Positions 38,460 through 54,231 of a DNA stretch of 64,000 nucleotides are shown here, one piece after another. Source of the stretch: an uncultured Acidobacteriota bacterium. GTDB lineage: Bacteria > Acidobacteriota > Thermoanaerobaculia > Multivoradales > SZUA-115. Made by a program: the position numbers and the translations under genes. The stretch spans positions 96,001 through 160,000 of the forward strand of contig CAWDVR010000003.1 of the NCBI GenBank assembly GCA_963805975.1. The letters are read 5' to 3'. The notes beneath the pieces are model-generated. The model did no database searches and had not been told where the DNA came from. It worked only from the letters and a program-made list of their open reading frames with translations. The stretch's first letter is position 1. Every line of letters begins with the position of its first letter.

Positions 38460-39257
38460 TCACGCCAGCGCTTCCGCGACGTCGGCCCAGGAGACCCCCT
38501 GCTCCGCGAGCGCCGCGTGCAGCTCGGCGAGCTGGCGGTTGATGCGGCGGTAGAGGCTCTTCTGATCGAGCGTCAGCGCGGTGGCGATCGAGCTCACGGC
38601 ACGGTCGTCGCAGAAGCGCATGCGGAGAATCAGCCGATCCTCGGCCGGCAGTGAGGACAGGGCGCGGGCGAGCGCCACCTGCACCTTCCTCGCCTGCCGT
38701 GCGTGCTCGCGGTCCCGCAGGCCGTCGTCGGCGCGCTCTCGCGCCGCCTCGCTGGCCAGGTTCAGACCGCCTTCCTCCCGGCGCCGGCCGCGGTGGGGAA
38801 GGCGCCCGGCGAGATCCAGGAGCTCCGCCTCCGAGATCGTCACCTGGTAATTGGTGACCAGCAGGGCGACGGCCTCGCGGGGGCTGTGGCCTTCACGGTA
38901 GAGGAGGCGGTCGAGGAGCACCCCCACCTTGCCGGCCCGGCGCGCCTCGGCGGACGGCCGCCACTTCCCCCACTTCTCGATGCGCCAGTCGAGGAACAGT
39001 CGGCCGACCACGGTGGTGAGGTAGGTGCGCAGCGTGCTGCCGCCGCGGAACTTGCGGAGGATCGCATAGCCGTTCTCGCACAGGCGCACGCTTGCACGCG
39101 ACTTGAACTCCTCGGCCTCCTCGGGCGCCAGCGCGTGGCGCTGGCACACCCAGCGGATGACGCTCTCGACGAGCGGCCAGTTTGACTCGAGGCGGGCCTT
39201 GAAGTGGCCCTCCTCGAGCTGTGCTTCTCCGCTCTCGGTGACCGGCTCGGCGAGCAT
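38460..39257 (-). CDS. ECF-type sigma-70 factor with extended internal region
   Basis: EAEEFKSRASVRL, LRKFRGGSTLRTYLTTVV (region 2), WGKWRPSAEARR, LPAEDRLILRMRF...SSIATAL (region 4); start uncertain. Confidence 0.85.
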   Translation of the reverse strand: MLAEPVTESGEAQLEEGHFKARLESNWPLVESVIRWVCQRHALAPEEAEEFKSRASVRLCENGYAILRKFRGGSTLRTYLTTVVGRLFLDWRIEKWGKWRPSAEARRAGKVGVLLDRLLYREGHSPREAVALLVTNYQVTISEAELLDLAGRLPHRGRRREEGGLNLASEAARERADDGLRDREHARQARKVQVALARALSSLPAEDRLILRMRFCDDRAVSSIATALTLDQKSLYRRINRQLAELHAALAEQGVSWADVAEALA

Positions 39258-39427
39258 CGCGACCTCCCCCCGCGCGGCAAGACTCGTGATTGCTTGTCTT
39301 CGGGGCTCATCACCTATAACGTCGCACTCCGCAAAAGCGAACAGGGGACGATGTCGAAGCTGGGGCAAGTGTCTTGCAGGGCCGGTGGCAGCAGCCGCGA
39401 CCTCGAGCTCCCAGTGGACGGAAAACG

Positions 39428-40084
39428 GTGAGCAGCCACTTTGTGCAGCCGCCCAGGACGGATCGGCCGCCCTTGCCGGAAGGCGAGCGGACCCTCGATG
39501 GCGAAGCATCGATCGGTTTTGCCGGCGAGTCGACGCTCGATCTCCTCGCGCGCATCCGGGTTGGTGACCGCGCAGCCCGGGACGCCCTCTGCCGGCGCCT
39601 CTACCCCCGCCTGACCCGGTTTGCCCACAGCCAGCTTCCGCCCCAGGCTCGCGATCTCAAGGAGACCGGCGACCTGGTCAACGAGGCGCTGTTCAAGACC
39701 TTCTCCAACCTCGATTCCTTCGAGCACCGCCACCAGGGCTCGCTGTTCGGCTATCTGTGCCGGGGCGTGCGCAACCAGATCAACGACGAGATCCGTCGCG
39801 TCTCCCGCCATCCGCCGCGCGAGGTGATGGCCGGCAGCGTGATCGACCACCGACCGTCGCCCGTCGAGCTGGCGATCGGCCGCGAGCAGCACGAGCTCTA
39901 CGAGCGCGCCCTCGCCCAGCTCTCGGACACCGACCGCGAGGCGATCTTCCTCAGCCTGGAGCTCGACCTGAGCAACAGGGAGATCGCCGAGGCCCTGGGC
40001 AAGCCCTCGGCCGACGCCGCCCGCATGACCGTGAACCGTGCCGTGCTCCGGCTCGGCCGGCTCCTCGAGCGTGCCGGTGTCTGA
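39428..40084 (+). CDS. ECF sigma factor associated with a Ser/Thr kinase
   Basis: STLDLLARIRVGDRAARDAL, ETGDLVNEA, LFGYL, LSDTDREAIFL...SNREIAEALGKPSADAARMTVNRAV; overlaps the kinase gene. Confidence 0.88.
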   Translation: MSSHFVQPPRTDRPPLPEGERTLDGEASIGFAGESTLDLLARIRVGDRAARDALCRRLYPRLTRFAHSQLPPQARDLKETGDLVNEALFKTFSNLDSFEHRHQGSLFGYLCRGVRNQINDEIRRVSRHPPREVMAGSVIDHRPSPVELAIGREQHELYERALAQLSDTDREAIFLSLELDLSNREIAEALGKPSADAARMTVNRAVLRLGRLLERAGV

Positions 40085-42629
40085 GCCCACCCGCGAGCCG
40101 GACGACGATCCGGCGCTGCTCGAGGTCGCCGGCTCGGTGGCGGGCGGCGAGGCGGTCGACTGGCAGGCCGCCGAGGCCCGGGCCGGCGCCGAGCGCGGCC
40201 CCGTGGTGCGGGCTCTCCATCTGATCGCGAAGATCGCCGAGGTCCACCGCAGCCTGCAGCGGACCGTGATCCTGGAGGACAGCCACTCCTTTGCGGCCCC
40301 CTCCGGGGACGCCCCGCCCATGCCGGCGCGCTGGGGCGACCTCGAGCTACTCGAGCGGGTGGGGGAGGGGGCCTCGGCCGACGTCTACCGGGCGCGGGAC
40401 ACGCGCCTCCAGCGCGAGGTCGCCTTGAAGCTCCTGCGCCGCCCGCCCAGCCGTGGCGAGACCGGCAACGAGGCCGTGCTGCGCGAAGGGCGACTGCTGG
40501 CCAAGGTGCGGCACGCGAACGTCGCCACGGTCTACGGGGTCGACGAGCACGACGGCCGGGTGGGCGTGTCCATGGAGTACGTGCGCGGCAAGACGCTCAG
40601 CCGGCTGATCGCCGAGCAGGGCCCGCAGAGCGCGCGCGAGGCGAGCGGCATCGGCATCGATCTCTGCCGGGCGCTCGCGGCGGTGCACGAGAAGGGCGTG
40701 GTGCACCGCGACCTCAAGGCGCAGAACGTGATGCGGGAGGAGGGCGGGCGGACGCTCCTGGTCGACTTCGGCATCGGCCGTGACCTCGAGGCCGAGGACG
40801 ACGGCGCGCCGTCGCTCTCCGGCACGCCGCTCTACCTGGCGCCGGAGATCTTCGACCGCCGGCCGGCCACGGCGCAGTCCGACCTCTACAGCCTGGGGGT
40901 GCTGCTCTTCTACCTGGTGACGGGCAAGTTCCCGGTGATGGGCGGCTCGCTCGCCGAGCTCCGCGCCGCACACCAGGAGGGACGGGCAGCGCTCCTCCGC
41001 GACCTGCGCCCGGACCTCCCTGCCTGGTTCGTGCAGACGGTGGAGCGGGCGCTGGAGCGCGATCCCGCGGCTCGCTTCCGCAGCGCCGGACAGATGGAGC
41101 GGGCGCTCGAGGCGGGCGCCGGGTCCGTGCGCGGTGCGGCAGTGGACGAGACCTCCAGCCGTCGCCGCGTCCTCCGCTGGCCCTGGCTCGCGGCCGCTGC
41201 TCTCGCGCTCGTCGCTGCCTCCGCCTGGTGGATCCAACTCGGCAGCCCCGGCGCCAGGGCACAGGAGCACTACGAAGTGGCGAAGCGGCGCTACGACGAC
41301 GATGATGTCCAGGGCGCGCTGGCAGCGGGTATGAAGTCTGTCGAGATCGATCCCACGAACCCCCGCACGCAGAACCTCATGGCCATGATCTATGGCGCAG
41401 CGGGCCAGCTCGACAAGGAAAAGACCGCTGCCGACCTGGCTCGCCAGTTCGCCGGCCGGTTGCCGCCGGCCGAGAGGCACGAGATTGCCGGCAACAGCCT
41501 CCTGGTGCAGCTCGATTACGAACGAGCCGCCGCGGAGTACAGCGAAGCGTTTCGGCTGGACCCCAAGGCCGAGTTCTCCCGGCGTCAGCTGGCGATGATC
41601 TACGGGAAGCTCGGCAAGCCGAGGAAGGCGGTGGAGCTGCTCGCCGGCTCGTGCAGTGGCGGCCAGGCGAACTGGGTCAGCTGTGGCGAGCTCTGCCTCG
41701 CCACAGCGCAGGACCGTGGCGTCGAGGCCGGGATCGAGCTCCTCGAATCGCTGCCCGCCGAGCTGCGGGAGACCAAGAGCAACGTTGGCTGGTCGGAGGG
41801 GGTGCTCTGGCTCGCGGCCGGCAATCTCGAACTGGCCGAGCGGTCCTTCGCGCGCCTCGCGCAGGCCGACGACACCTATGCCAGCGAAGGCTCGATGTTC
41901 CTTTCCGAGGTCGATCTCCTCCGAGGCCGCCTCCACGAGGCGAAGCAGGACCTCACCAAAGGCTTCGTGGTCGACACCCGCGGTGAGCAGGTCGTGGTGG
42001 GATGGCGCCGTCGGCTGGCCCTAGCCGAATCTGGACCTGGTGCTGAGAGAGGAGGACGAAGCGCGGCGTCAGCTGGATCAGCTCGGCGACGCTTCCCAAG
42101 GTACCCAAGGCGGCGCGGACGATCGCGCACCAGGCGCTGCTCGAGATCCAGGCCAAGAGGCTCGACCGCGCATTGACCCTCGAGCCGCGACCTCGACGGG
42201 ATGCAGCGCCTCTACGACGGCAACGCCACACTCGCCGCCTTGGCGCTCCAGGTGCGAGGGAGCCTCGCCCTCGCGCAGAATGATGCAACGAGGGCGCGCG
42301 ACGATCTCGAAGCGGCCCTGCGCTACCGGGACGAGCCCTTGATCCGAAACGAGCTAGCGCGAGCGCTCGAGAAGTTGGGGCAGGTCCGCGATGCACTGGT
42401 CATCCGCCAGGAGATCGATCGCCTGAAAGTAACCTTGCTCAATGAGAACCTCGCTCTCCTCTGGGTCACCAATCTCGCCGACCTCGCCCGCCTTCACGAG
42501 AAGCTTGGTCAGACCGAGGAGGCGACGAAGCGCTACGAGCAGTTCCTCTCGTATTGGGGCGAGAACGCCCCTGATCTACTCCTCGTGAAAGAGGCCCAGG
42601 CCGCGCTCGACAGGCTCTCCTCGAAGTAG
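40077..42629 (+). CDS. Membrane Hanks-type Ser/Thr kinase with extracytoplasmic TPRs; interrupted by three apparent +1 frameshifts near 42030, 42091 and 42182
   Basis: VGEGASADVY, VALK, HRDLKAQN, DFG, GTPLYLAPE, DLYSLG, then a TM and TPRs. The 42201-42629 ORF continues the TPR region in the original frame. Confidence 0.85.
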
Positions 42630-42846: not shown

Positions 42847-43569
42847 ATGTCCACGGGAAATCCATTCTGGGTCGTCACGGGTCGCGCCTGCTGCGACCGC
42901 GGCTTTCGCAGGGACTGTGTGGCGCGTCTGGGAGGTCGGGTCACCCCGACTCTCGCGCCCCTCCACGACGAGGTGGAACAGCTCAAGAAGCACGTGCTGG
43001 GCACACTCAGCTATCGGCTCGACAACAAGGGCCTCTACTACTTCTACGACCTCATCTTCCGCGGCCACGAGGCCGAGCCGAGCCTCGACCGCGGCCCGCT
43101 GGCGGAGCTGGGCCGGCTGGCGGCCGGCGCCAACCTCGGCCGCGAGCTCTCCGACCCCGCCCACTGGCAGCCCACCTGGGAGGTGATCGGCCTCGCCTGC
43201 ACGGACCGCATCTTCCGCGCCCAGCTCCACGAGGCCTCGGGGGAGCCGGAAGCGTTCCGCGCCGAGCTCGAGGACGGCATCCCGAGCTTCGCGGTGGGCG
43301 AGGAGTCGCGCGAGGTGCTGCGCGAGCTCTTCTCCCAGGTCGAGACCATGCAGGTCCTGCGTTCGATCCACGTGCTGGCCTGGCGCATCCCCTACGCCGA
43401 GCCGGCCGAGCGCGCGGCCTGCGAGACCGCGATCCGCCACGACGACTACGTCTTCATCCGCCAGGACGTGGCCATGGACCTCTTCCTGCTCCAGACCGCG
43501 GTCAAGCCGGGCGCCCAGCGCGATCTGCTCCAGGCCAGCCTGGACGAGAAGCTCGCCCTCGCCGCCTAG
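42847..43569 (+). CDS. Hypothetical protein with duplicated W-x-V-x-G-x-A-C-x-D-R-x-F-R motif
   Basis: GAGAGG RBS then ATG at 42847; host-like codon usage; motif copies FWVVTGRACCDRGFR and TWEVIGLACTDRIFR. Confidence 0.75.
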   Translation: MSTGNPFWVVTGRACCDRGFRRDCVARLGGRVTPTLAPLHDEVEQLKKHVLGTLSYRLDNKGLYYFYDLIFRGHEAEPSLDRGPLAELGRLAAGANLGRELSDPAHWQPTWEVIGLACTDRIFRAQLHEASGEPEAFRAELEDGIPSFAVGEESREVLRELFSQVETMQVLRSIHVLAWRIPYAEPAERAACETAIRHDDYVFIRQDVAMDLFLLQTAVKPGAQRDLLQASLDEKLALAA

Positions 43570-43695
43570 CGTGGCCCTCCAACCTCGCTCACCTCACTTC
43601 CCGCGCCGGCTCCCCTCGGGGCCCGGCGCGGCTTTCCGAGGTACCCGTGCGCCGCGCGCTAGAATCGCGCCCTGGCTTCCGAGCCCCAGCCCGCC

Positions 43696-44292
43696 ATGGA
43701 CCTCACCCCGGGCGAGACCCTCCATCGTGTCCTCGCCGGCGACCGCGCAGCCGCGGCCTGGCTCTACGACTCGTTTGCCGAGCGCCTGTTCCGCCGCCTG
43801 CGGCAGCGCTACGGCTACCTGGGCGAGCCGGAGCTCGAGGATCTGCTCCAGGAAACGTTTCTCCTGGTGCTGCGCAACCAGCGCCGGGTGCTCGCCGCCT
43901 TTCTCGATCGCCGCCCGGCGCGGCCGATCGAGAGCGGGGAGATCGAGCGCTTCCTGTGGGACGAGGCCTGCGGCCTGGCGAGCAACCGGCGGCGCTCGGC
44001 GGCGGTGCGCAAGGTGGTGCCGCTCGCCGACTACGAGGCCTCCGCGCCGTCCCGCGGCGAGTCCGAGTCGCGCGCCCTGGACCGCGACCTCCTGCTGCGG
44101 CTCGCCGCCTGCCTCAAGCAGAGCGGCGCACGGCTCTTCCTCTACTACAAGCTCCGTTTCCGCGACGGCCTGACCCCCGACGAGATCGCCACCGTCACGG
44201 GCTGGTCGCTCAAGGCCACCTACAAGCTGCGGCAGGATCTCAACCAGGCGGTGCTGCACTGCGCCGAGCGGCTGGGCCTGGTCGGAGGCTAG
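43696..44292 (+). CDS. ECF-type sigma-70 factor
   Basis: AGDRAAAAWLY, ELEDLLQETF (region 2), LRFRDGLTPDEIATVTGWSLKATY (region 4 HTH); TAGAAT -10-like box at about 43659. Confidence 0.85.
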   Translation: MDLTPGETLHRVLAGDRAAAAWLYDSFAERLFRRLRQRYGYLGEPELEDLLQETFLLVLRNQRRVLAAFLDRRPARPIESGEIERFLWDEACGLASNRRRSAAVRKVVPLADYEASAPSRGESESRALDRDLLLRLAACLKQSGARLFLYYKLRFRDGLTPDEIATVTGWSLKATYKLRQDLNQAVLHCAERLGLVGG

Positions 44293-44316
44293 TGTTCCCG
44301 AGCCACCAGATCGGAG

Positions 44317-44339
44317 TGTCATCCTGAGCGCAGCGAAGG
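44317..44339 (+). repeat. TGTC/CGTC-type REP half element
   Basis: TGTCATCCTGAGCGCAGCGAAGG resembles the widespread GTCATCCTGAGCGCAGCGAAGGATCT repeat. Confidence 0.6.
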
Positions 44340-44371
44340 CTCCCGCTCTCGGGACGCTTGCCGTCGCCGGG

Positions 44372-47179
44372 TTGCTGGCGCTCGGAGGCTGTGCCGGGGC
44401 CGGCGAGCCTCTGCCGGCGGAGGTGGCGGTCGTGCTGCGGGGCCACAGCGAGGGCGAGGTGCGCGCCGACGGTGGTGTCACCCCGCTCTACCTCAGCCCG
44501 CGGCAGCCGATCGAGCTCTGTCTCGCCGCCCCGCGGGATCTCAACACCAGCCAGTGGCAGGCGCGCCTGTGGTTCTCGGGCGGGCGCCGAGGCGCCGGGG
44601 CCTTCGTTCCGCCCACGGTGCGGGCCGGCACCACCCTCTGCTTCCGGGCCCCGGAGGCGGCGTTTGGGGTCCACCGGCTGTGCGGGGACGTGGAGAACCG
44701 GCTCGACAGCCGGCACTACCGCCTGCCGTGCCAGCCGCTCGCGGTGGCCGAGCGCCCGGCCTTCCGGGCTCTCGCGGCCGAGCGCGGCACGCTGGCCGGC
44801 TCGCTCGGCGGCGGCAGCTTCGCGGCCTGGCTGCGGGGGGCCGAGTATCTGCGCGCGCGGGCCGCGAGCCAGGGCTGCCCGTTTCTCGCCGTGGAGGTCG
44901 ACCTGGTGGTCGCCTACGTGGCGCGCCAGGCGGGAAGCGCGGCCACCCTGGCCGAGGCCCGGCAGCGCCTCGCGGCCCTGCCGCGGTGGCTCGGCGAGCC
45001 GGCGGCGAGCTGGCTCGCCGCGGCGGCGGCGCTCGAGCGGGCGAAGCTCGATCTCGCCCTGGGCGAGGCGCGAGACGCCTGGCAGGATCTGCGGCAGGCC
45101 GCGACCGGCTTCAAGCGGGTGGCCGAGCCCGAGGCCTTCACGGTCGCCATCACCCAGTCGGAGCTCCTGGCCGAGCTCGGCGCCCAGGCGGACGCCGTGG
45201 CGCTGGTGCGCGGCGAGCTGTCCGACTGTGAGCGCTTCCCTTGCGCCGTGGATCTCCTGCCCAGCCTCCAGACGCAGCTCGCCTGGCTCCTGCTCCTCGA
45301 CCCGGACGCCGGCGCCACCGAGCTGGCCGAGGCACGGGCGCAGCTCGAGCGCGCGATCGCCAGCCCGGCCTGGGAGCAGGGTCCCCTGGAGCTGGAGCTG
45401 GCCAACGGCCACATCAACCTCGCCCATGTCGTTCTGCGCCAGGGCGGCGATCCGCAGCCGGACCTCGAGCATGCGCGGCGGCTCCTGGCTGCCAACCCGA
45501 GCCCTTCGGCGCGCCGGCGCTTCCTGCTCGCCTGGGTCGAGCTCCTCGCCGGGCTCGAGCGCCTGGGCCGCGGCGACGCGGCCGGGGCGCTCGCGGCCTG
45601 CGCGCCGCTCGCCGCGGAACGGGGGACACCGCGGCTCGCAGTCTGGGGCCTGTCCTGCGTCGGTGCCGCCGAGCGCCGGCAAGGCGACCTGCTCGGCGCC
45701 CGGCGCAGCTACGCGCGGGCGCTCCTCGCCTACGAGCTGGCGAGCCCGGCCGAGCTGCGCCAGAACCTCGTCCTGGGTCCCAGCCAGCGGGCCGACGATT
45801 ACTACCAGGCGGCGCGGGTGGAGGTCGAGCTGGGGCGGCCCGAGGAAGCCTGGTCGCTCCTCGCCGGGCTCGACCGCCTCGCCGCCGACGAGCGGGAGCG
45901 CCAGTGCCGCGCGCGGGCGGAGAGCCCGGCGCTCGCCGCTCGTTGGGAGGCGGCCGACACACGGCGCTCCGAGCTCCTGGCCGAGCTGCTCGCGCTCGAG
46001 GCCCCGACCTCCCGCCAGCGGCGCCAGGAGCTCGCGCCGGTGGTGCGCGACCTCAAACGCGAGGCGCAGGAGATGGCCCGGGCGGTTCCCCGTTGCTCGG
46101 CCGCGATCGACACTCCACGCGAATCCTGGGCCGGGTTCCGTGCCGTGCCGCTTCCCGAGGAGGTTCTGCTGCTCGAGCGCACGGCCGGCGGCAGGGTCCA
46201 CCTGGCACGCCGGACGCCGCTCGCTCGCGGCGCGCTCCAGGGCCTCTCGGCCGAGGTCTCTGCCGCCCTCGACCGTCGGCAGATGGACGATGGCGAGTGG
46301 CAGCGGCTCGTAGCGCCCCTGGCCCGTGCCCTGGTGCCGCCCGCGCCGGAACGGCTGCACCCCCTGACAGCCTTCGCTCTGCACGGCGCGTTGCAGAACG
46401 TTCCCCTGGCCGCGCTGCCGGTGACGGCTAACGCGCTGCGCGGTAAGGCTCAGCGCTGGCTGGCCGATTGGACGACGCCCGTCCAGGTGCCGGCGGAAGG
46501 CGAGCGGGACGCCGGGGCAGGCGGGACCGAGACCTGGTTCCTGGTCGATCCCGGCGGCAACCTGGCCGGCGCGCGCTCCATGGTCGACACCTACCGGCGC
46601 CTGTTCCCGGCGGCGCGGGTGCTCACCGGCCGAGCGGCCACCGTCGAGGCCCTGACCGGCGGCCTCGGTCGCGCCGGCCGGCTGCACCTGGACGCCCACG
46701 GGCTCTACGACCCGGCCTTTCCGGAGCTCTCGAGCCTCGAGCTGGCGGACGGCCGGCTGATGGCGAGCGAGCTGGCGAGGCTGCCGGTGCCCCGCGAGCT
46801 GGTGAACCTCTCGGCCTGCAAGACGGGCCGCTCGCCGACCACGGCCGACAGCGGCCGGTACGGGCTCGCCGGCCTCTTCGCGCAGCGGGGCACGGCCTGG
46901 GTGGTGGCCAGCCGGGGAAACCTCGACGACGCTCTGGCGCGCGAGTTCAACCAGGCGTTCTACGCGGCGCTCGCAGCCGGCCGCGGCGTGCCCGCGAGCT
47001 ACGAGGAAGCGCTCGGTACGGTGCGCCGGCGCTGGCCCGCCGCGGCCTGGGCCGGCCTGCTGCTGCTCTCGGCCGGCCCAGGCTGCGAGGCCGCCAGGAA
47101 AGACACCGACGGGAAAAACGCCGACGGAAAAAACGACGTCGTAATGACTCCTATCTCTGTCGTAGGGGGTAGAGGATGA
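44372..47179 (+). CDS. TPR-like + CHAT (caspase-like) domain protein, probable lipoprotein; true start probably further upstream (possibly CTG at 44324)
   Basis: ALHGALQNVPLAAL, VDPGGNLAGA, LHLDAHG (catalytic His), LVNLSACKTG (catalytic Cys), FYAAL, WAGL; N-terminal hydrophobic stretch ending LGGC. Confidence 0.88.
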   Translation: MLALGGCAGAGEPLPAEVAVVLRGHSEGEVRADGGVTPLYLSPRQPIELCLAAPRDLNTSQWQARLWFSGGRRGAGAFVPPTVRAGTTLCFRAPEAAFGVHRLCGDVENRLDSRHYRLPCQPLAVAERPAFRALAAERGTLAGSLGGGSFAAWLRGAEYLRARAASQGCPFLAVEVDLVVAYVARQAGSAATLAEARQRLAALPRWLGEPAASWLAAAAALERAKLDLALGEARDAWQDLRQAATGFKRVAEPEAFTVAITQSELLAELGAQADAVALVRGELSDCERFPCAVDLLPSLQTQLAWLLLLDPDAGATELAEARAQLERAIASPAWEQGPLELELANGHINLAHVVLRQGGDPQPDLEHARRLLAANPSPSARRRFLLAWVELLAGLERLGRGDAAGALAACAPLAAERGTPRLAVWGLSCVGAAERRQGDLLGARRSYARALLAYELASPAELRQNLVLGPSQRADDYYQAARVEVELGRPEEAWSLLAGLDRLAADERERQCRARAESPALAARWEAADTRRSELLAELLALEAPTSRQRRQELAPVVRDLKREAQEMARAVPRCSAAIDTPRESWAGFRAVPLPEEVLLLERTAGGRVHLARRTPLARGALQGLSAEVSAALDRRQMDDGEWQRLVAPLARALVPPAPERLHPLTAFALHGALQNVPLAALPVTANALRGKAQRWLADWTTPVQVPAEGERDAGAGGTETWFLVDPGGNLAGARSMVDTYRRLFPAARVLTGRAATVEALTGGLGRAGRLHLDAHGLYDPAFPELSSLELADGRLMASELARLPVPRELVNLSACKTGRSPTTADSGRYGLAGLFAQRGTAWVVASRGNLDDALAREFNQAFYAALAAGRGVPASYEEALGTVRRRWPAAAWAGLLLLSAGPGCEAARKDTDGKNADGKNDVVMTPISVVGGRG

Positions 47180-48033
47180 GAGCGATCGACCCGGAAGCGC
47201 TGCTCGCGAAGCTGGCGGAGGCGGACACGGAGGATGAGGACGGGGATCTGGCGGCGGCCCACGGCGCCGCTTCGCCCTCCCCGCCCACCGCCGTCTCGCC
47301 GACGGAAGCGGTTCTCGTGGCCTACCGGGAGGATCGGCTCTCGGCCGCGGAGGCGGAGCGGATCGCGGGAGCCCTGGCGAGCGATCCCGCCTTGCGACGG
47401 CGGCTGATCGCGCTCGGCGGGATGACCCGGCCACAGCTCTCGCCGCGGGTGCGCGAGGCCGTCCTCGCGGCTGCCGGGACAGCGCCCCGGCCCGGTCTCC
47501 GACCCCGGCTGAGCCGTCGGCGTGCCGCCTGGGTGGGCGCCGCGGCTGCCGCCGCGCTCCTGGCCGTCGCGGTCTTGCCCTGGCTCCTGGGGCGGCAGGG
47601 CGGTACGCCCGCGAGACCGCTGCCCGAGTACGCGGTCGAGGTATCGGGCCTCGCCGCCGAGCGCGACGGGCCGCGCGCCGGGACCACGGCCGCGGCGCTC
47701 GCCGGCACGCGGGTCCGGATCGTCGCCACGGCGGAGGGCGAGGCCGTGGCCGGGGTGGAGTACGGGCTCTACCGGCAGGCAGGCGACCGCTTCGAGCGGC
47801 TCCCTGCCGGCGGGCCGATCCGCTTCGACGCCACGGCCGAGGCCGCGGTCTTCGAAGCCGAGGCCGCGGCCCTCGTCGGCAGGACGCCCGGCAGGCACAC
47901 TCTCTGGGTAGTGGTCGCCCGGCACGGAGAGCTGCCGGCCGGGGCGGAGCTGGCGGCCGGGGGCGACCTGGCGCGGGGCGGCTCGCACCGGATGATGCCG
48001 GTGGTGATCGTGCTCGGGGACGATCGGCAGTGA
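47176..48033 (+). CDS. Putative single-pass anti-sigma factor
   Basis: N-terminal zf-HC2-like helices (PTEAVLVAYREDRLSAAEAERI) lacking Zn ligands, a TM (AAWVGAAAAAALLAVAVLPWLL) and a beta-rich C-terminal domain; ATGA overlap with the CHAT gene. Confidence 0.7.
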   Translation: MRAIDPEALLAKLAEADTEDEDGDLAAAHGAASPSPPTAVSPTEAVLVAYREDRLSAAEAERIAGALASDPALRRRLIALGGMTRPQLSPRVREAVLAAAGTAPRPGLRPRLSRRRAAWVGAAAAAALLAVAVLPWLLGRQGGTPARPLPEYAVEVSGLAAERDGPRAGTTAAALAGTRVRIVATAEGEAVAGVEYGLYRQAGDRFERLPAGGPIRFDATAEAAVFEAEAAALVGRTPGRHTLWVVVARHGELPAGAELAAGGDLARGGSHRMMPVVIVLGDDRQ

Positions 48034-48056
48034 GAGAACGGGTAAGGAGGAGAGCC

Positions 48057-49778
48057 ATGCGAGAGACGAAAAAGCGCCTACGCGCACCGCGCGCGGTCGT
48101 GCTCGGGCTGGTGCTCGTGGCCGGCGCGGGCCGGGAGGCGGCGGCGCAGCTCGTGACCTGGGAACTCTTCGATCGCGACAAGGAGCCGGCCGAGCAGAAC
48201 GACAAGCGGGTCACCTGCGGCCGCTACGGCGTGTTCCACCTGAAAGTGGAGAACCCGGTGCCGGGCGCCGGGTCGATCGAGCCGTACCCGCCGCGGAACA
48301 AGGGCATCGAGGTCCCGGCCCGCTTCCCGAGCTACGCCGATGCCGCCGCGCCCGTGCCGCCGGCCGGGAGCCTCTCGACTGCGGCCGATGCATGGTTTCC
48401 CTGCGACGAGGGCGGCTGCTTCGCGTCGCCCTTCTCTTTTTCTCCGGGCCAGCCGTGGGTGGCGGTCATCGATTGGGACAGTCCGCACGGCTGGAGCGTG
48501 GGCTGGACCATCCGCCAAGTCACGGGCCCCTCGGTGGGCCTCGCCCTCTTCCCGCTCGCGGACCCGGAGCTCGAGTCGGTCTATCGGCGGGGCGAGACGG
48601 ACGCGCACCTCCTCGCCCAGCTCTGCAGACTGACCGAGCTGGTCGAGCACCACGGCCTGACGCCGCCGGTGGCGGTCAACATGAGCTTCGGGCGGCTGGC
48701 GCGGTCGGAGGACAAGCTCCCGGCCGGGATCTGCAACCCCGATCGGCTCGCCTGCCAGGTCGCCTTCGTCGTCGAGCACCTGCGGCAGATCTCCCGGCCG
48801 GAGCTCCCGGCCCCCGGCACGGTTTTCGTGGCCGCCGCGGGTAACCACGGGCAGCTGCTCTACCCGGCCGCGGCTCCCGCCGTGGTCGCCGCCGGCGCCA
48901 TCGATCTCGCCGTCTTCTGGGCGAACCGCGGCGCGGTCCCCTCCTGGGAGACCCCCCATCTCACGGGCCAGGCCGCGGCGCTGATGCCCGGCTACGGGAT
49001 CTGTCTCTTTCCGGGGCCCGCGCCCCAGGATCAGCGCGGCCACCCCGTGCCGCCCGGCAGCTCCTACGCCGCCGCCACCTTCTCCGGCTTCCTGGTCGCG
49101 CCGCTTCTTGCCGGCGAGCTGGGCGATCCCCTGCTGCCCGTCCTGTGGCAACCGGTGGCGACCTGTACCAGCCAGGGGTGCAGTTACCAGGTCCTGCACG
49201 GCGAGCGGCCGATGCTCGGGGTCGGCCCCGGCCTCGATCTCCTCCTGGAGCAGACGCGCACCGGCAGGCCCAGGTGCCGCCCGCCCCACGAGGGCACCGT
49301 CCAGGCAAACGGCCTGCTCGGCGCGGGCCTCGCCGCCAGCCAGTCGATCCCGCGCCTGTCCTTCGACGACGTGGCGGCCGCGGACCGCAAGCAACCGGCC
49401 CCCGGCGCCGACCCCTGCGTACCCTGCCGGGGCCACAACCCGCCGCCGCCGCTCAACGTCTGGGCCGTCCGCGGGCTCGCCACCCACGCCACGTTGGCGA
49501 GCCTGGTGGGGCTCGAGCTGGATCTCTCGTTCGCCGGCGCCCTTCCCGGCGACTACACCCTTCTCGGACTCTTCCTGCGGGTGGGCGAGACGTTCTACCC
49601 GGTCTCCGTGAGCGGCGGGCTCGGCCGGCTCCAGAGCGGTGCCGTCGACCGTCTGGTGGTGCCCGACACCGGCAGCCTGGTCCTCAGGGGAGAGCAGCCG
49701 TCGCTGGTCTTCGTGCTGCGGGACGACCTCGAGAGCGGGGCCGAGTTCTGGACCTCGATCCCGATCCTGATGCAGTAG
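48057..49778 (+). CDS. Secreted divergent S8 (subtilisin-like) serine peptidase
   Basis: AAGGAGG RBS and signal peptide; VAVID (Asp), SPHG (His), VNMSFG, VFVAAAGNHG (oxyanion Asn), YPAAAPAVVAAGA, GSSYAAA (Ser). Confidence 0.75.
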   Translation: MRETKKRLRAPRAVVLGLVLVAGAGREAAAQLVTWELFDRDKEPAEQNDKRVTCGRYGVFHLKVENPVPGAGSIEPYPPRNKGIEVPARFPSYADAAAPVPPAGSLSTAADAWFPCDEGGCFASPFSFSPGQPWVAVIDWDSPHGWSVGWTIRQVTGPSVGLALFPLADPELESVYRRGETDAHLLAQLCRLTELVEHHGLTPPVAVNMSFGRLARSEDKLPAGICNPDRLACQVAFVVEHLRQISRPELPAPGTVFVAAAGNHGQLLYPAAAPAVVAAGAIDLAVFWANRGAVPSWETPHLTGQAAALMPGYGICLFPGPAPQDQRGHPVPPGSSYAAATFSGFLVAPLLAGELGDPLLPVLWQPVATCTSQGCSYQVLHGERPMLGVGPGLDLLLEQTRTGRPRCRPPHEGTVQANGLLGAGLAASQSIPRLSFDDVAAADRKQPAPGADPCVPCRGHNPPPPLNVWAVRGLATHATLASLVGLELDLSFAGALPGDYTLLGLFLRVGETFYPVSVSGGLGRLQSGAVDRLVVPDTGSLVLRGEQPSLVFVLRDDLESGAEFWTSIPILMQ

Positions 49779-49951: not shown

Positions 49952-51178
49952 ATGGCCGAACGACCCGTTTCCCTGAGCGATCTCAAGATCGATTCGAGCG
50001 CCCGTGCCGAGCCCGGCGGCCACCGCGGGCGCAACCTCGTGCTCGCCGTCATCGCCCTGGCGGTGGCCGGCGGGCTGGGTTTCTTCCTGTGGCGCGGCGC
50101 CGCGGTCCACCAGGTGAGGGCCGCCGATGTCCAGGTCGTCACCAGCGGTGGCGCCAACGACTCGGTGCTCGATGGCTCGGGCTACGTCACCGCCCGGCGC
50201 CAGGCGACCGTGTCCTCGAAAGTGACCGGCAAGGTGATCGAGATCCTGGTGGAAGAAGGCATGCGGGTGACCGAGGGCCAGGTGCTCGCCCGCCTCGACG
50301 ACTCGCTGCTGCGCCGCCAGATCGATCTCGACAACGCCCGCCTGACCGCGGCGCGCAGCTCGCTCAACGAGCTCGAGGTGCGGCTGGCCGAGGCGGCGCT
50401 CAATCTGAAGCGCAGCGGCCAGTTGGCGGCGAGCGGAGTGGCGGCGCAGGCCCAGCTCGACGCCGACCAGGCCACGGTCGACTCGTTCAAGGCGCAGATC
50501 GCGCGCACGCGCGACGACGCCACGGTCGCCGACCGGACGCTCGCGATGTCGCGCGAGCTGCTGACCGACGCCACCATCCGCGCGCCGTTCTCCGGCGTCG
50601 CGATCTCGAAGGACGCCCAGCCCGGCGAGATGATCTCGCCGGTGTCGGCCGGCGGCGGCTTCACCCGCACCGGCATCTGCACCCTGGTCGACATGTCGTC
50701 GCTCGAGATCGAGGTGGACGTGCGGGAGGCCTACATCAACCGCGTCGCGAACGGCCAACGGGTGGAGGCGGTGCTCGACTCCTACCCGGACTGGCAGATC
50801 CCGGCGCACGTCATCACCATCATCCCCACCGCCTCGCGCGACAAGGCGACGGTGAAGGTACGCATCGCTTTCGACCAGCTCGATCCGCGCATCCTGCCGG
50901 ACATGGGCGTCAAGGTGAGGTTCTTCGCCGAGGAGCGCGCGGCCGCGGCCCAGCCGGCGCGGCGCGTGCGCGTGCCGCAGGCCGCGGTGCGCGAGGACGG
51001 TGGCTCCAAGGTGGTGTTCGTGATCGCCGGCGGGCGCGTCGAGCGGCGGGCCGTGACCGTGGGTGCCGCCGATGGCGATCAGATCGAAGTCACCGCCGGC
51101 CTCACGGGCGGCGAGCGAGTGGTAGTGCTGCCGCCCCCCGGCCTCGTGGACGGCGCGCGGGTCAAGACGATCGAGTGA
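49952..51178 (+). CDS. Efflux periplasmic adaptor (MacA-like membrane fusion protein)
   Basis: N-terminal TM, VSSKVTGKVIEILVEEG, IRAPFSG, ILPDMGVKV. Confidence 0.92.
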   Translation: MAERPVSLSDLKIDSSARAEPGGHRGRNLVLAVIALAVAGGLGFFLWRGAAVHQVRAADVQVVTSGGANDSVLDGSGYVTARRQATVSSKVTGKVIEILVEEGMRVTEGQVLARLDDSLLRRQIDLDNARLTAARSSLNELEVRLAEAALNLKRSGQLAASGVAAQAQLDADQATVDSFKAQIARTRDDATVADRTLAMSRELLTDATIRAPFSGVAISKDAQPGEMISPVSAGGGFTRTGICTLVDMSSLEIEVDVREAYINRVANGQRVEAVLDSYPDWQIPAHVITIIPTASRDKATVKVRIAFDQLDPRILPDMGVKVRFFAEERAAAAQPARRVRVPQAAVREDGGSKVVFVIAGGRVERRAVTVGAADGDQIEVTAGLTGGERVVVLPPPGLVDGARVKTIE

Positions 51179-51188
51179 GGAGGAGCTC

Positions 51189-51884
51189 ATGGCTGCAATG
51201 GAACCCCTGGTCCGCGTGCGCGACGGCTACAAGACCTATCGCCGCGGCAGCGAGACCATCAACGTCCTCCAGGGCATGAACCTGGACATCGCCCGCGGCG
51301 AGTTCCTCGCCCTGATGGGCCCCTCGGGCTCGGGCAAGACGACCCTGCTGAACCTGCTGGGCGGCCTCGACCGGCCGACCCGCGGCGCGGTCGAGGTCGA
51401 GGGCCAGCGCATCGACCAGCTCTCGGAGAACCAGCTCGCGGCCTGGCGCTCGCGGCACGTGGGCTTCGTCTTCCAGATGTACAACCTGCTGCCGGTCTTG
51501 ACCGCCGAGCGCAACGTGGAGCTGCCGCTGCTCCTGACCAAGCTGTCGCGCGACCAGCGCAAGCGCCAGGTGGAGACGGCCCTCACTCTGGTGGGCCTGG
51601 CCGACCGCATGCGCCACTATCCGCGCCAGCTCTCGGGCGGCCAGGAGCAGCGCGTGGGCATCGCGCGCGCCATCGTGACCGACCCGACGCTGTTGCTCTG
51701 CGACGAGCCGACCGGCGACCTCGACCGCAAGAGCGGCGACGAGGTGCTGGATCTCTTGACCGGCCTCAACCGCGAGCACGGCAAGACCATCGTCATGGTG
51801 ACGCACGACCCGCACGCCGCCGCCCGCGCCTCGCGCACCCTGCACTTCGACAAGGGCGTCCTCTCGCAGGAGGAGACGACATGA
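51189..51884 (+). CDS. ABC transporter ATP-binding protein (MacB/LolD-like)
   Basis: GPSGSGKT, GFVFQ, LSGGQEQR, CDEPTGDLD, VTHD. Confidence 0.95.
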   Translation: MAAMEPLVRVRDGYKTYRRGSETINVLQGMNLDIARGEFLALMGPSGSGKTTLLNLLGGLDRPTRGAVEVEGQRIDQLSENQLAAWRSRHVGFVFQMYNLLPVLTAERNVELPLLLTKLSRDQRKRQVETALTLVGLADRMRHYPRQLSGGQEQRVGIARAIVTDPTLLLCDEPTGDLDRKSGDEVLDLLTGLNREHGKTIVMVTHDPHAAARASRTLHFDKGVLSQEETT

Positions 51885-53044
51885 AGTTCCTCCACCTGAT
51901 CTGGAAGAACCTCGGCCGCAAGAAGGTGCGCACGCTCTTCACGCTGGCGGCGATCAGTGCCGCCTTCGTGCTCTACGGCGTGCTCGCCGCGGTGCGCTTC
52001 GCCTTCAGCATGGGGGTCGACCTGACCGGCGTCGACCGCCTGGTGACGATCAACAAGGTGACGCTGATCCAGCCCCTGCCCTTCGCCTACGACGCCAAGA
52101 TCCGCGCCGTGCCCGGGGTCACCGAGGTGGCCCACGCCACCTGGTTCGGCGCCTACTACCAGGACAAGCGCAACTTTTTCGGGCAGTTCCCGGTCGAGCC
52201 CGTGAGCTACCTGCGCATGTTCCCCGAGCTGCGGCTGCCGGAGGACCAGATGAAGGCCTGGCTCGCCGACCGGCAGGGCGCGGTGGTCGGGCGTTCGATC
52301 GCCAACCAGTACGGCTTCAAGATCGGTGACCGCGTACCGCTGATCTCCCCCTGGCCGCGGCAGGACGGCTCGCAGAGCTGGGAGTTCAACATCGTCGGCA
52401 TCTACGACGGCGCCGAGAAGGGCACCGACACCACCCAGTTCCTCTTCCACTACGACTACTTCAACGAGAACCGGCGCACCTTCGGCAACGCCAGGGACAC
52501 GGTGGGCTGGTACACGGTGCGGGTCGCCGACCCGGAGAAGGCGCCGCAGATCGCCAAGGCGATCGACGCGCAGTTCGCCAACTCGTCGTCCGAGACCGAG
52601 ACCACCACCGAGAAGGCCTTCGCCCAGGGCTTCGCCAACCAGGTCGGCAACGTCGGCGCCATCGTGCAGGCGATCGTGGCCGCGGTGCTCTCGATCCTGC
52701 TGCTGGTGGTGGGCAACACCATGGCGCAGGCCGTGCGAGAGCGCACCAACGAGCTCGCGGTGCTCAAGACGCTGGGCTTCACCAACCGCGGCGTGCTCGG
52801 GCTGGTGCTCGGCGAGTCGCTGGCCATCGCGGTGCTGGGCGGCGTCGTAGGCATGGTGCTCTCGTGGCTCTTCGTGCAGGTCTTCGCCAAGACCCTGACC
52901 GCCTACCTGCCCATCTTCTACCTGCCGAACAGCGCCTTCGTGTCGGGCACCGTGTTGATGCTCGTGCTGGGCCTGGCCGCCGGCCTGTTCCCGGCCTGGC
53001 AGGCGATGCGGCTGTCGATCGCCACCGCCTTGAGGAGGGCTTGA
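51881..53044 (+). CDS. ABC transporter permease (MacB/FtsX-like)
   Basis: KNLGRKKVRTLFT, a periplasmic domain, then VRERTNELAVLKTLGF. Confidence 0.92.
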   Translation: MKFLHLIWKNLGRKKVRTLFTLAAISAAFVLYGVLAAVRFAFSMGVDLTGVDRLVTINKVTLIQPLPFAYDAKIRAVPGVTEVAHATWFGAYYQDKRNFFGQFPVEPVSYLRMFPELRLPEDQMKAWLADRQGAVVGRSIANQYGFKIGDRVPLISPWPRQDGSQSWEFNIVGIYDGAEKGTDTTQFLFHYDYFNENRRTFGNARDTVGWYTVRVADPEKAPQIAKAIDAQFANSSSETETTTEKAFAQGFANQVGNVGAIVQAIVAAVLSILLLVVGNTMAQAVRERTNELAVLKTLGFTNRGVLGLVLGESLAIAVLGGVVGMVLSWLFVQVFAKTLTAYLPIFYLPNSAFVSGTVLMLVLGLAAGLFPAWQAMRLSIATALRRA

Positions 53045-53046
53045 GC

Positions 53047-54231
53047 ATGTGGCTGTCTCAGGTCGTAACCGTCACCTGGCTCAACCTGCGCAACCTGCCG
53101 CAGCGCATCGGCTCGTCGGTGGTGGCCATGGTGGGCATCGCCGGCGTGGTCGCCATCTTCCTCGCCGTGCTGTCGATCGGTGAGGGCTTCAAGCGCGCCA
53201 TGACCGGCGCCGGCTCGCCGGACACCGCGGTGGTGCTGCGCTCGGGCGCCACCTCGGAGATGACCAGCGGCTTCGGCGGCGAGCAGGCGCGGATCATCAC
53301 CGAGGCGCCGGGCATCCTGCGTGGCGACGGCGGCAACCTCGCCTCGCCGGAGCTCTACGTGGTCATCGGTCTGCCGAAACGCTCTACCGGCACCGCGGCC
53401 AACGTGCCGCTGCGTGGCGTGGGCCCGGAAGCCTTCGGCGTGCGCGAAGAGGTGAAGGTGGTCTCCGGCCGTCGTTTCGAGCCCGGCAAGTTCGAGGTCA
53501 TCGTCGGCCAGGCCGCGGCGACACAGTTCGAAGGTCTGGCCGTGGGCTCGATGCACCGCTGGGGCGAGAACGAGTGGAGAGTGACCGGCACCTTCACCGC
53601 CGACGGCGCGCTGTCGGAATCCGAGCTCTGGTGCGACGCCAAGGTGCTGCAGCCGGCCTACCGGCGGGGCAACAGCTACCAGTCGGTGTTCGCAAAGCTC
53701 GAGTCGCCCGCCGCCTTCGACCGCTTCAAGGACAGCCTCACCGCCGACCCGCGCCTCAGCGTCACCGTCGAGCGCGAGAACGACTTCTACGCCGAGCAGT
53801 CGCGGATGCTCACCAACCTGATCAAGCGCCTGGGCGGCGTGATCGCCTTCATCATGGGCATCGGCGCGGTGTTCGGCGCCGTGCTCACCATGTACACGGC
53901 CGTGGCCTCGCGCACGCGCGAGATCGCCACGCTGCGCGCGCTCGGCTTCTCGCGCGGCCCGGTGGTGATCTCGGTGCTGCTCGAGGCCCTGTTGCTCGGT
54001 CTCGTCGGCGGCTTGATCGGCGGCGGGCTCGCCTACCTGGCCTTCAACGGCTACCAGGCCTCGACCCTCAACTGGAACAGCTTCAGCCAGGTGGCGTTCG
54101 CCTTCGCGGTGACACCGGCGCTCCTCACCCAGGGGATCGTCTACGCGCTGCTGATCGGTCTGGTGGGAGGTCTCTTCCCGGCGATCCGGGCGGCCAACCT
54201 GCCGGTGGCGACGGCGCTCCGCGAGCTCTAG
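53047..54231 (+). CDS. ABC transporter permease (MacB/FtsX-like)
   Basis: ATG at 53047; VASRTREIATLRALGF, GGLFPAIRAA. Confidence 0.92.
   Translation: MWLSQVVTVTWLNLRNLPQRIGSSVVAMVGIAGVVAIFLAVLSIGEGFKRAMTGAGSPDTAVVLRSGATSEMTSGFGGEQARIITEAPGILRGDGGNLASPELYVVIGLPKRSTGTAANVPLRGVGPEAFGVREEVKVVSGRRFEPGKFEVIVGQAAATQFEGLAVGSMHRWGENEWRVTGTFTADGALSESELWCDAKVLQPAYRRGNSYQSVFAKLESPAAFDRFKDSLTADPRLSVTVERENDFYAEQSRMLTNLIKRLGGVIAFIMGIGAVFGAVLTMYTAVASRTREIATLRALGFSRGPVVISVLLEALLLGLVGGLIGGGLAYLAFNGYQASTLNWNSFSQVAFAFAVTPALLTQGIVYALLIGLVGGLFPAIRAANLPVATALREL

Follow-up and report, generated by a model that had tools for sequence, protein, structure and literature searches.

A conserved four-gene operon for a sigma factor, a TPR-CHAT protease, an anti-sigma-like membrane protein and an S8 subtilase in Acidobacteriota

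In type III-E CRISPR systems (Csx29/Csx30/CASP-sigma) a CHAT protease is genetically linked to a sigma factor, and canonical site-1 proteolysis is exemplified by DegS/RseA. Two other described systems come closer to the locus presented here, a four-gene cassette encoding a divergent sigma factor of the extracytoplasmic function (ECF) type, a TPR-CHAT protease, a single-pass membrane protein and an S8 subtilase in an uncultured Acidobacteriota bacterium (assembly GCA_963805975.1, contig CAWDVR010000003.1). The 64,000 nt of this contig that were analysed are referred to as the window, and all window coordinates are counted from its first letter. According to the available sections of its description (PMC11506125), the DdvA/DdvS system of Myxococcus xanthus likewise combines an ECF sigma factor, a single-pass anti-sigma with a helical N-terminus and a TPR-CHAT region with a His-Cys dyad outside the membrane, with CHAT proposed as site-1 and RseP as site-2 protease. 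Its operon holds an extra peptidase gene, and RseP degrades DdvA once the outer domain is removed. In the available parts of PMC7826278 and PMC8999054, the ECF54 group of Actinobacteria has an ECF sigma factor with a subtilase and a TPR-CHAT gene nearby, no CRISPR and a proposed proteolytic control. Type III-B SAVED-CHAT/PCaspase loci also tie CHAT to a sigma factor genetically and form a two-protease cascade (10.1101/2023.06.23.546230, in the portion available). A preliminary description of this DNA, made from the letters alone, had named Csx29/Csx30 and SAVED-CHAT as the parallels, but these act in the cytoplasm, with CRISPR RNA or cyclic oligoadenylate (cOA) as the trigger, and the DdvA and ECF54 contexts are closer.

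The four genes lie on the forward strand at 43696-49778, as judged from their open reading frames (ORFs), in the order sigma, TPR-CHAT, membrane protein and S8. Both later junctions (CHAT/membrane protein and membrane protein/S8) are 4-nt stop/start overlaps (Table 1), in agreement with the co-orientation and tight coupling first noticed in the sequence. The four-gene operon is real and strongly conserved. With the S8 as query, strong matches were found in 13 of the other 400 sampled genomes of the class, all within the taxonomic order of the window and spread over 7 families. The resulting 17 S8 regions comprised 11 with the full four-gene order, 2 cut by a contig end, 1 without the sigma gene, 2 with S8 alone and 1 fragment; weak S8 matches in other taxonomic orders (L015-L017, one from G179) were not used. 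A sigma profile returned 48 loci, with record titles mostly of Acidobacteriota or Thermoanaerobaculia (three were titled proteobacteria). The order was complete in 32 of these, kept up to a contig end in 13 and truly broken in 3, i.e. all four genes were present in order in 32/35 loci long enough to judge. The S8-derived and sigma-derived sets overlap and several loci share one genome, and the two counts are neither added nor independent.

A second cassette, L087 (G000:C1:1476392-1482871), occurs in the same genome; there the sigma gene comes first, then those for the anti-sigma, a lipoprotein TPR-CHAT and S8. All four of its proteins are homologous to those of the window (E 4.5e-9, 5e-14, 7e-20 and 2e-6). 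The L087-type S8 had 263 homologues, with matches in 54/201 genomes searched in the taxonomic order. In a sample of 20 of the 84 match rows, picked for long contigs, the order sigma>CHAT>S8 was found in 20/20 loci and the anti-sigma was detected in 19/20. Since both families keep all four homologous genes, the four-part unit has outlived duplication and a change of gene order, and the joint conservation proposed as a check in the preliminary description holds in the 32/35 informative loci and in this second family. A fifth conserved gene was considered and rejected; the largest flanking cluster, of generic kinases, occurred in the window and in 6 further loci. A third cassette type of sigma, putative anti-sigma and CHAT was also observed head-to-head with a window-type cassette (L062:2747-9574 and L063:267-4637, both on the minus strand), terminating in L062 with an S8 that bears a P domain.

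The sigma factor is divergent. Its match to TIGR02937 (E 1.3e-4) lay under the cut-off and curated cut-offs were not reached. A 12-sequence profile matched solved ECF sigma factors in the PDB weakly (best E 1.3e-4, positions 8-184), the Atlas placed the protein with sigma clusters at 0.98, and its ~200 aa hold sigma2 and sigma4 only, which is the make-up of an ECF sigma factor. The ECF assignment made at first sight is thus shared by the PDB profile and the Atlas, but not by the Pfam/family score. Cys 92, 139 and 189 were invariant in 12/12 sigma sequences (43696-44292), where a redox or metal role is possible. Upstream, a TANNNT hexamer 5-9 nt 5' of the sigma start was found in 15/37 loci against 1.9 expected (8 of the 15 from the fused clade described below). 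Counts of k-mers in 45 upstream regions gave no shared ECF-type promoter motif, and an autoregulatory ECF promoter was dropped on these grounds; the ECF54 promoter motif was not among the top words of this k-mer scan. With a housekeeping -10 enriched and no conserved ECF-type promoter, the operon seems not to be self-induced, which suggests housekeeping expression of a resting sensor whose sigma factor may have its targets elsewhere.

The CHAT domain matched PF12770 at 81.8 bits (cut-off 24, E 7.7e-23), and His792 and Cys832 were invariant in 34/34 CHAT sequences, confirming the intact dyad reported earlier. This invariance argues that catalysis is under selection. The protein comprises a lipobox, a small domain that appears beta-rich in the alignment, TPR-like helices and the CHAT domain; no solved CHAT relative came up in a PDB sequence search with E values up to 1. 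In 40/45 loci the N-terminus carries a hydrophobic stretch that ends in Cys (some lipoboxes being imperfect), and the remaining 5/45 had a hydrophobic, uncleaved membrane anchor without the Cys. Eight further cysteines were conserved at at least 90%, which suggests disulfides. Together with the anti-sigma-CHAT fusions described below, the lipobox or anchor and the cysteines point to a location at the outer face of the inner membrane. The genome of the window (G000) holds 22 CHAT matches. Many of them have a signal-like N-terminus and lie beside sigma/anti-sigma genes; frameshifts interrupt two, and one comes after a secreted caspase C14-DUF4384 gene.

The third gene gave no Pfam match, its match to NF052375 (E 1.1e-4) lay under the cut-off and its profile matched 3hug_B, which we take to be the anti-sigma RslA, weakly (E 0.11). 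Its structure model has a short helical N-terminal bundle, a transmembrane (TM) helix at residues ~114-141, present in all full aligned rows, and an outer immunoglobulin (Ig)-like sandwich at 149-281 (structure match Z ~10, root-mean-square deviation (rmsd) 2.8, 109 aligned). No conserved Cys/His zinc ligands were found in two alignments of this protein. Helical N-terminus, one TM helix, outer domain and adjoining sigma gene make up the architecture of a class I TM anti-sigma, and in a single database record (P0212) sigma and anti-sigma are joined in one protein. We infer that the third gene product binds the sigma factor; both identities, sigma and anti-sigma, have weak family matches that are backed by profile, model and fusion evidence.

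The S8 of the window scored 15 bits against a Pfam cut-off of 21.8 (E 0.016), and PF00082 was found in 8/34 homologue rows. The peptidase call of the preliminary description therefore falls short on the Pfam score, but Asp148, His153 and Ser345 were invariant, and in that order, in 34/34 sequences, with family motifs around Asn217 and Asn272, and the model (mean predicted local distance difference test score (pLDDT) 80.7) has a subtilisin fold with a prodomain. Residues 39-400 matched subtilisins and their pro-forms at Z 15-16 (PCSK9: Z 16.0, rmsd 3.8, 246 aligned). The gap between Asp148 and His153 is five residues only, compared with ~30 residues in subtilisin, and the oxyanion Asn is replaced by His in 5/34 sequences (by eye). 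A conserved CxxC motif and a C-terminal beta domain are also present. The N-terminus is signal-like in the aligned rows; this, like all signal sequences here, was judged by eye and by conservation. With the CHAT lipobox or anchor conserved and the catalytic residues of both proteases kept, the earlier impression that both look extracytoplasmic is upheld.

Natural gene fusions tie these parts together. An in-frame sigma-CHAT fusion was found in 10/48 loci (L049, L051, L056, L059, L065, L068, L070, L071, L078 and L084), and among database proteins there were 28 full-length plus 4 truncated examples (P0036-P0067). The lipobox was retained in the 13 fusions read, and the fused loci retain a separate anti-sigma gene. 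In a FastTree phylogeny of 408 columns of the CHAT end, 14/15 fused sequences formed one clade (support 1.0); P0067 fell outside it, which suggests a second origin. Should the lipobox be functional, LspA cleavage would separate the sigma factor from CHAT, and the sigma factor would stay on a membrane tail. Homologues of LspA and RseP are present in the genome. In two paralogous loci, L114:4710-8909 (-) and L116:5240-8845 (+), anti-sigma, TM helix, Ig domain and TPR-CHAT form a single ORF followed by S8, and because CHAT comes after the anti-sigma TM helix and Ig domain in these DdvA-like proteins (PMC11506125, available sections), it would lie outside the membrane. A programmed frameshift joining sigma to CHAT in the unfused loci was unsupported, as most of them have an ordinary overlapping or nearby start.

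A candidate cut site was apparent in the anti-sigma alignment. Arg163 was invariant in 34/34 sequences and lies 22 residues past the TM helix; a small residue comes next, with a loop that varies in length and is modelled with low confidence. It was matched in 16/16 correctly framed paralogue rows; three rows were dropped, namely one frameshifted piece and those of L114 and L116, where the slices used covered the CHAT end, and the full fusion ORFs of both carry the motif. Across this genome, an Arg-Gly/Ser 16-42 residues past the TM helix was seen by eye in 9/9 automatically picked anti-sigma candidates that have a CHAT gene no more than 5 kb away compared with 4/15 elsewhere, a comparison of non-independent paralogues, with no formal statistics and a 16-42 window set after seeing the data. 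The motif appears to track CHAT, since 8 of these 9 candidates have no S8 match nearby. Separase, a CHAT relative, cleaves after Arg (PMC11506125, available sections).

Based on these data, we propose that the membrane-anchored TPR-CHAT docks on the anti-sigma at its outer Ig domain and, as site-1 protease, would cleave it after Arg163, whereupon the housekeeping RseP would cut the short membrane stub and free the sigma factor. That CHAT cuts the anti-sigma is, in our judgement, probable. The topology of the anti-sigma and the candidate cut ~22 residues past the membrane resemble canonical ECF regulated intramembrane proteolysis (PMC11506125, available sections), but here one operon encodes both a subtilase and a caspase-like protein as dedicated site-1 candidate. 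A complex prediction of CHAT 37-903 with Ig domain 149-280 gave 0.59 (median of three) against 0.00 for the best control; the mark was reached by 116/157 solved and 2/215 mismatched pairs, with 18 of the 157 and both mismatches at or below 0.60. The runs agreed in at least 98% of contacts, with partner pLDDT of at least 76. The prediction lends weak support to binding; CHAT and the anti-sigma, for which the preliminary description had proposed this kind of modelling, are linked by the fusions and weakly by the predicted complex. In the weakest step, the secreted subtilase would supply the trigger that switches CHAT on. The reasons for placing S8 upstream are its fixed presence in both families, its secretion, its prodomain and the apparent lack of induction by the sigma factor; the full order, S8 first, then CHAT, anti-sigma and RseP, is tentative.

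Several observations weigh against this reading. No observation orders S8 before CHAT, CHAT cleavage is not demonstrated for DdvA (PMC11506125, available sections), and the complex pass is weak and came with no interface. The post hoc survey of the Arg motif belongs here too, and its S8 neighbour search also overlooked the divergent S8 of the window, so other S8 genes may be missed. Conservation is high at Arg208 and Arg221 of the Ig domain too, and Arg163 could instead serve binding or folding. Among the loci, L030 is a cassette without sigma, L036 and L037 have S8 alone, L066 has sigma and anti-sigma without CHAT or S8, and L069 has sigma alone. The orphan S8 copies in L036 and L037 would suit an S8 that is an output or parallel cargo, secreted as an enzyme or acted on by CHAT as a substrate further downstream, with CHAT still cutting the anti-sigma, as would the finding that in most of the genome's CHAT/sigma/anti-sigma loci no S8 was matched and other genes take its place; the ddvS operon holds an extra peptidase too (PMC11506125, available sections). 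We regard this as unlikely, as both families have S8 as a fixed member, with CxxC and C-terminal parts that are homologous between them, and the promoter data argue against induction. Co-duplication of S8 and anti-sigma in a tandem expansion (L045:10000-20588, in the order sigma, CHAT, anti-sigma, S8, S8, anti-sigma, S8) and their co-loss in L053 likewise count against the proposed order, since genes duplicated and lost together favour a direct S8/anti-sigma link. S8 might then be the cutter, with CHAT activating it, as in SAVED-CHAT/PCaspase, or acting as sensor and scaffold. Type III-B has a known cascade that starts with CHAT (10.1101/2023.06.23.546230, in the portion available) and the S8 prodomain must be released, but the Arg motif also occurs in CHAT-adjacent candidates with no S8 match, and CHAT is the partner both in the fusions found in nature and in the weakly supported predicted complex, which leaves this arrangement rather improbable. 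Control of the anti-sigma by binding of CHAT, sterically and with no cleavage, would make Arg163 a binding residue. DdvA dyad mutants are wild-type-like at rest with no autoproteolysis seen (PMC11506125, available sections) and the predicted complex speaks for binding only; selection on the dyad and the variable-length loop after Arg163 make steric control very unlikely.

The CHAT gene of the window poses a separate difficulty for our reading, as it has no canonical start. The only one near the lipobox, TTG 44372, falls within the hydrophobic stretch, and in the window sequence the frame is open further upstream with no ATG, GTG or TTG there. The hydrophobic region and Cys of the lipobox-like motif first noted are kept in 40/45 loci, but in the window gene no canonical start precedes the signal. 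The repeat at 44317-44340 has 70 genome copies at up to 2 mismatches and coincides with a depth spike at 44305-44358; the closest relative, L039, lacks it and has an ordinary GTGA overlap start for CHAT. An assembly indel at the sigma/CHAT junction was ruled out by one near-relative contig that bridges it gap-free, and another reaches into it. As the frame has no canonical start, the repeat is present and the bridging contig shows no indel, the start is probably the non-canonical CTG 44324, 7 nt downstream of a GGAG, and reduced CHAT translation in the window lineage is possible. Insertion of the repeat may even have removed the normal start and partly disabled the cassette in this lineage, whatever the mechanism in relatives. 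This is distinctly unlikely given the intact 951-codon frame and catalytic residues, the GGAG ahead of the CTG, and the near relatives, which have an identical junction and whose listed CHAT-gene indels sum to multiples of three.

Our preferred reading, CHAT as site-1 protease of its anti-sigma, makes the cassette work by analogy with DdvA/DdvS as proposed, yet it would not be a member of that system. The window-type CHAT is usually a separate lipoprotein proposed to act in trans, fused only in the paralogues L114 and L116; the CHCC zinc site of DdvA is absent from the cassette anti-sigma alignments, with an Ig domain instead; S8 is a fixed partner and the sigma factor can be CHAT-fused; and the linked CBASS/CRISPR island of the DdvA type was not found near the cassette in 110 flanking ORFs (these contrasts refer to the available sections on DdvA/DdvS). 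ECF54 is, in the part of PMC7826278 available, 100% Actinobacteria, described with no anti-sigma and with a carboxypeptidase-regulatory-like protein at +1, whereas the present cassette is in Acidobacteriota with a TM anti-sigma-like gene and exported proteases; the two are likened by gene context alone. The newness implied by the preliminary description accordingly shrinks, as DdvA is a known case of a membrane anti-sigma that carries a periplasmic TPR-CHAT (PMC11506125) and the ECF54 context is catalogued (PMC7826278; both in part). The cassette resembles a variant of DdvA/DdvS-like and ECF54-context parts in an exported four-gene form, for which no paper was found in the literature searched, a search that covered the ECF supplement partly and may miss later ECF groups with similar context. 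The absence of CRISPR/cas stated earlier agrees with our search of the 96%-complete genome, which gave no match to Cas1 or RAMP, a further difference from the III-E and III-B systems. A defence island was dropped from consideration, as the 110 flanking ORFs of the complete loci held no cas or cyclic oligonucleotide-based antiphage signalling system (CBASS) core gene and gave generic PADLOC matches only (kinase, ATPase, helicase, SIR2 and similar), and none of the four cassette proteins matched PADLOC. These flanks give no sign of a phage-defence context, and the phage cue suggested earlier, like a phage-defence role in general, finds no support here. Mobile carriage was likewise unsupported, with no S8 match in plasmids and no sigma match in phages.

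Table 1 Features of the cassette and their positions in the window
Feature	Position	Strand	Basis or remark
Putative housekeeping-type -10 hexamer TAGAAT	43660..43665	+	30 nt 5' of sigma start; similar position in closest relative L039; putative function
Divergent ECF-type sigma factor, 198 aa	43696..44292	+	Profiles, Atlas, 48 related loci
Repetitive extragenic palindromic (REP)-like repeat inside 5' end of CHAT frame	44317..44340	+	Genome copy count, depth spike
Lipoprotein-type TPR-CHAT protease, ~951 aa	44324..47179	+	Probable start
CHAT lipobox Cys	44390-44392	+	Alignment
CHAT dyad His792	46697-46699	+	Alignment
CHAT dyad Cys832	46817-46819	+	Alignment
Single-pass anti-sigma-like protein, 285 aa	47176..48033	+	Model, weak profile matches
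Anti-sigma Arg163	47662-47664	+	Alignment
Secreted-type divergent S8 subtilase, likely start ATG 48057	48030..49778	+	Alignment, model
S8 Asp148	48471-48473	+	Alignment
S8 His153	48486-48488	+	Alignment
S8 oxyanion Asn	48843-48845	+	Alignment
S8 Ser345	49062-49064	+	Alignment

The surroundings of the cassette in the window were also inspected. Directly upstream, at 42847-43569 (+), lies a 240-aa ORF outside the cassette that is shared with L039 only (81%), with two apparent repeats weakly like the Os1348 NHLP clan (E 0.092). An ECF sigma gene followed by a Ser/Thr kinase-TM-TPR gene occupies 39374-42629 (+); the latter is split over two frames near 42100-42200 and is one 875-aa ORF in L039; the split may be an error or mark a pseudogene. 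A divergent sigma-70-family gene at 38460-39257 (-) brings the count to three sigma genes within 6 kb. Downstream, at 49952-54231 (+), are HlyD-type adaptor and ABC transporter genes, which elsewhere adjoin the cassette only in L039 and L048.

For most bacterial TPR-CHAT proteases neither the natural substrates nor the triggers are established, and the CHAT cut of DdvA is not demonstrable without its signal. At its broadest, the cassette may represent a widespread, CRISPR-independent periplasmic zymogen cascade of two proteases, comparable to Toll/Spaetzle or complement, in which a subtilase senses an outside protein and activates an Arg-specific caspase-like lipoprotein that cleaves its cognate anti-sigma at an encoded Arg-Gly/Ser site. 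The ~10 sigma/anti-sigma/CHAT sets in this one genome would then be parallel channels under one cut rule, and the sigma factor of the fused clade a lipoprotein leader freed by LspA and RseP; we consider this wider picture doubtful. The sigma-lipoprotein fusion and the five-residue Asp-His subtilase are unusual in themselves. As a split version of the DdvA arrangement, the cassette unites in one operon a named candidate for the substrate and a candidate for the activator, with the bond after Arg163 as the candidate site of the cut. The mechanism is plausible and directly testable, and with these four genes the idea of CHAT as a site-1 protease becomes testable.

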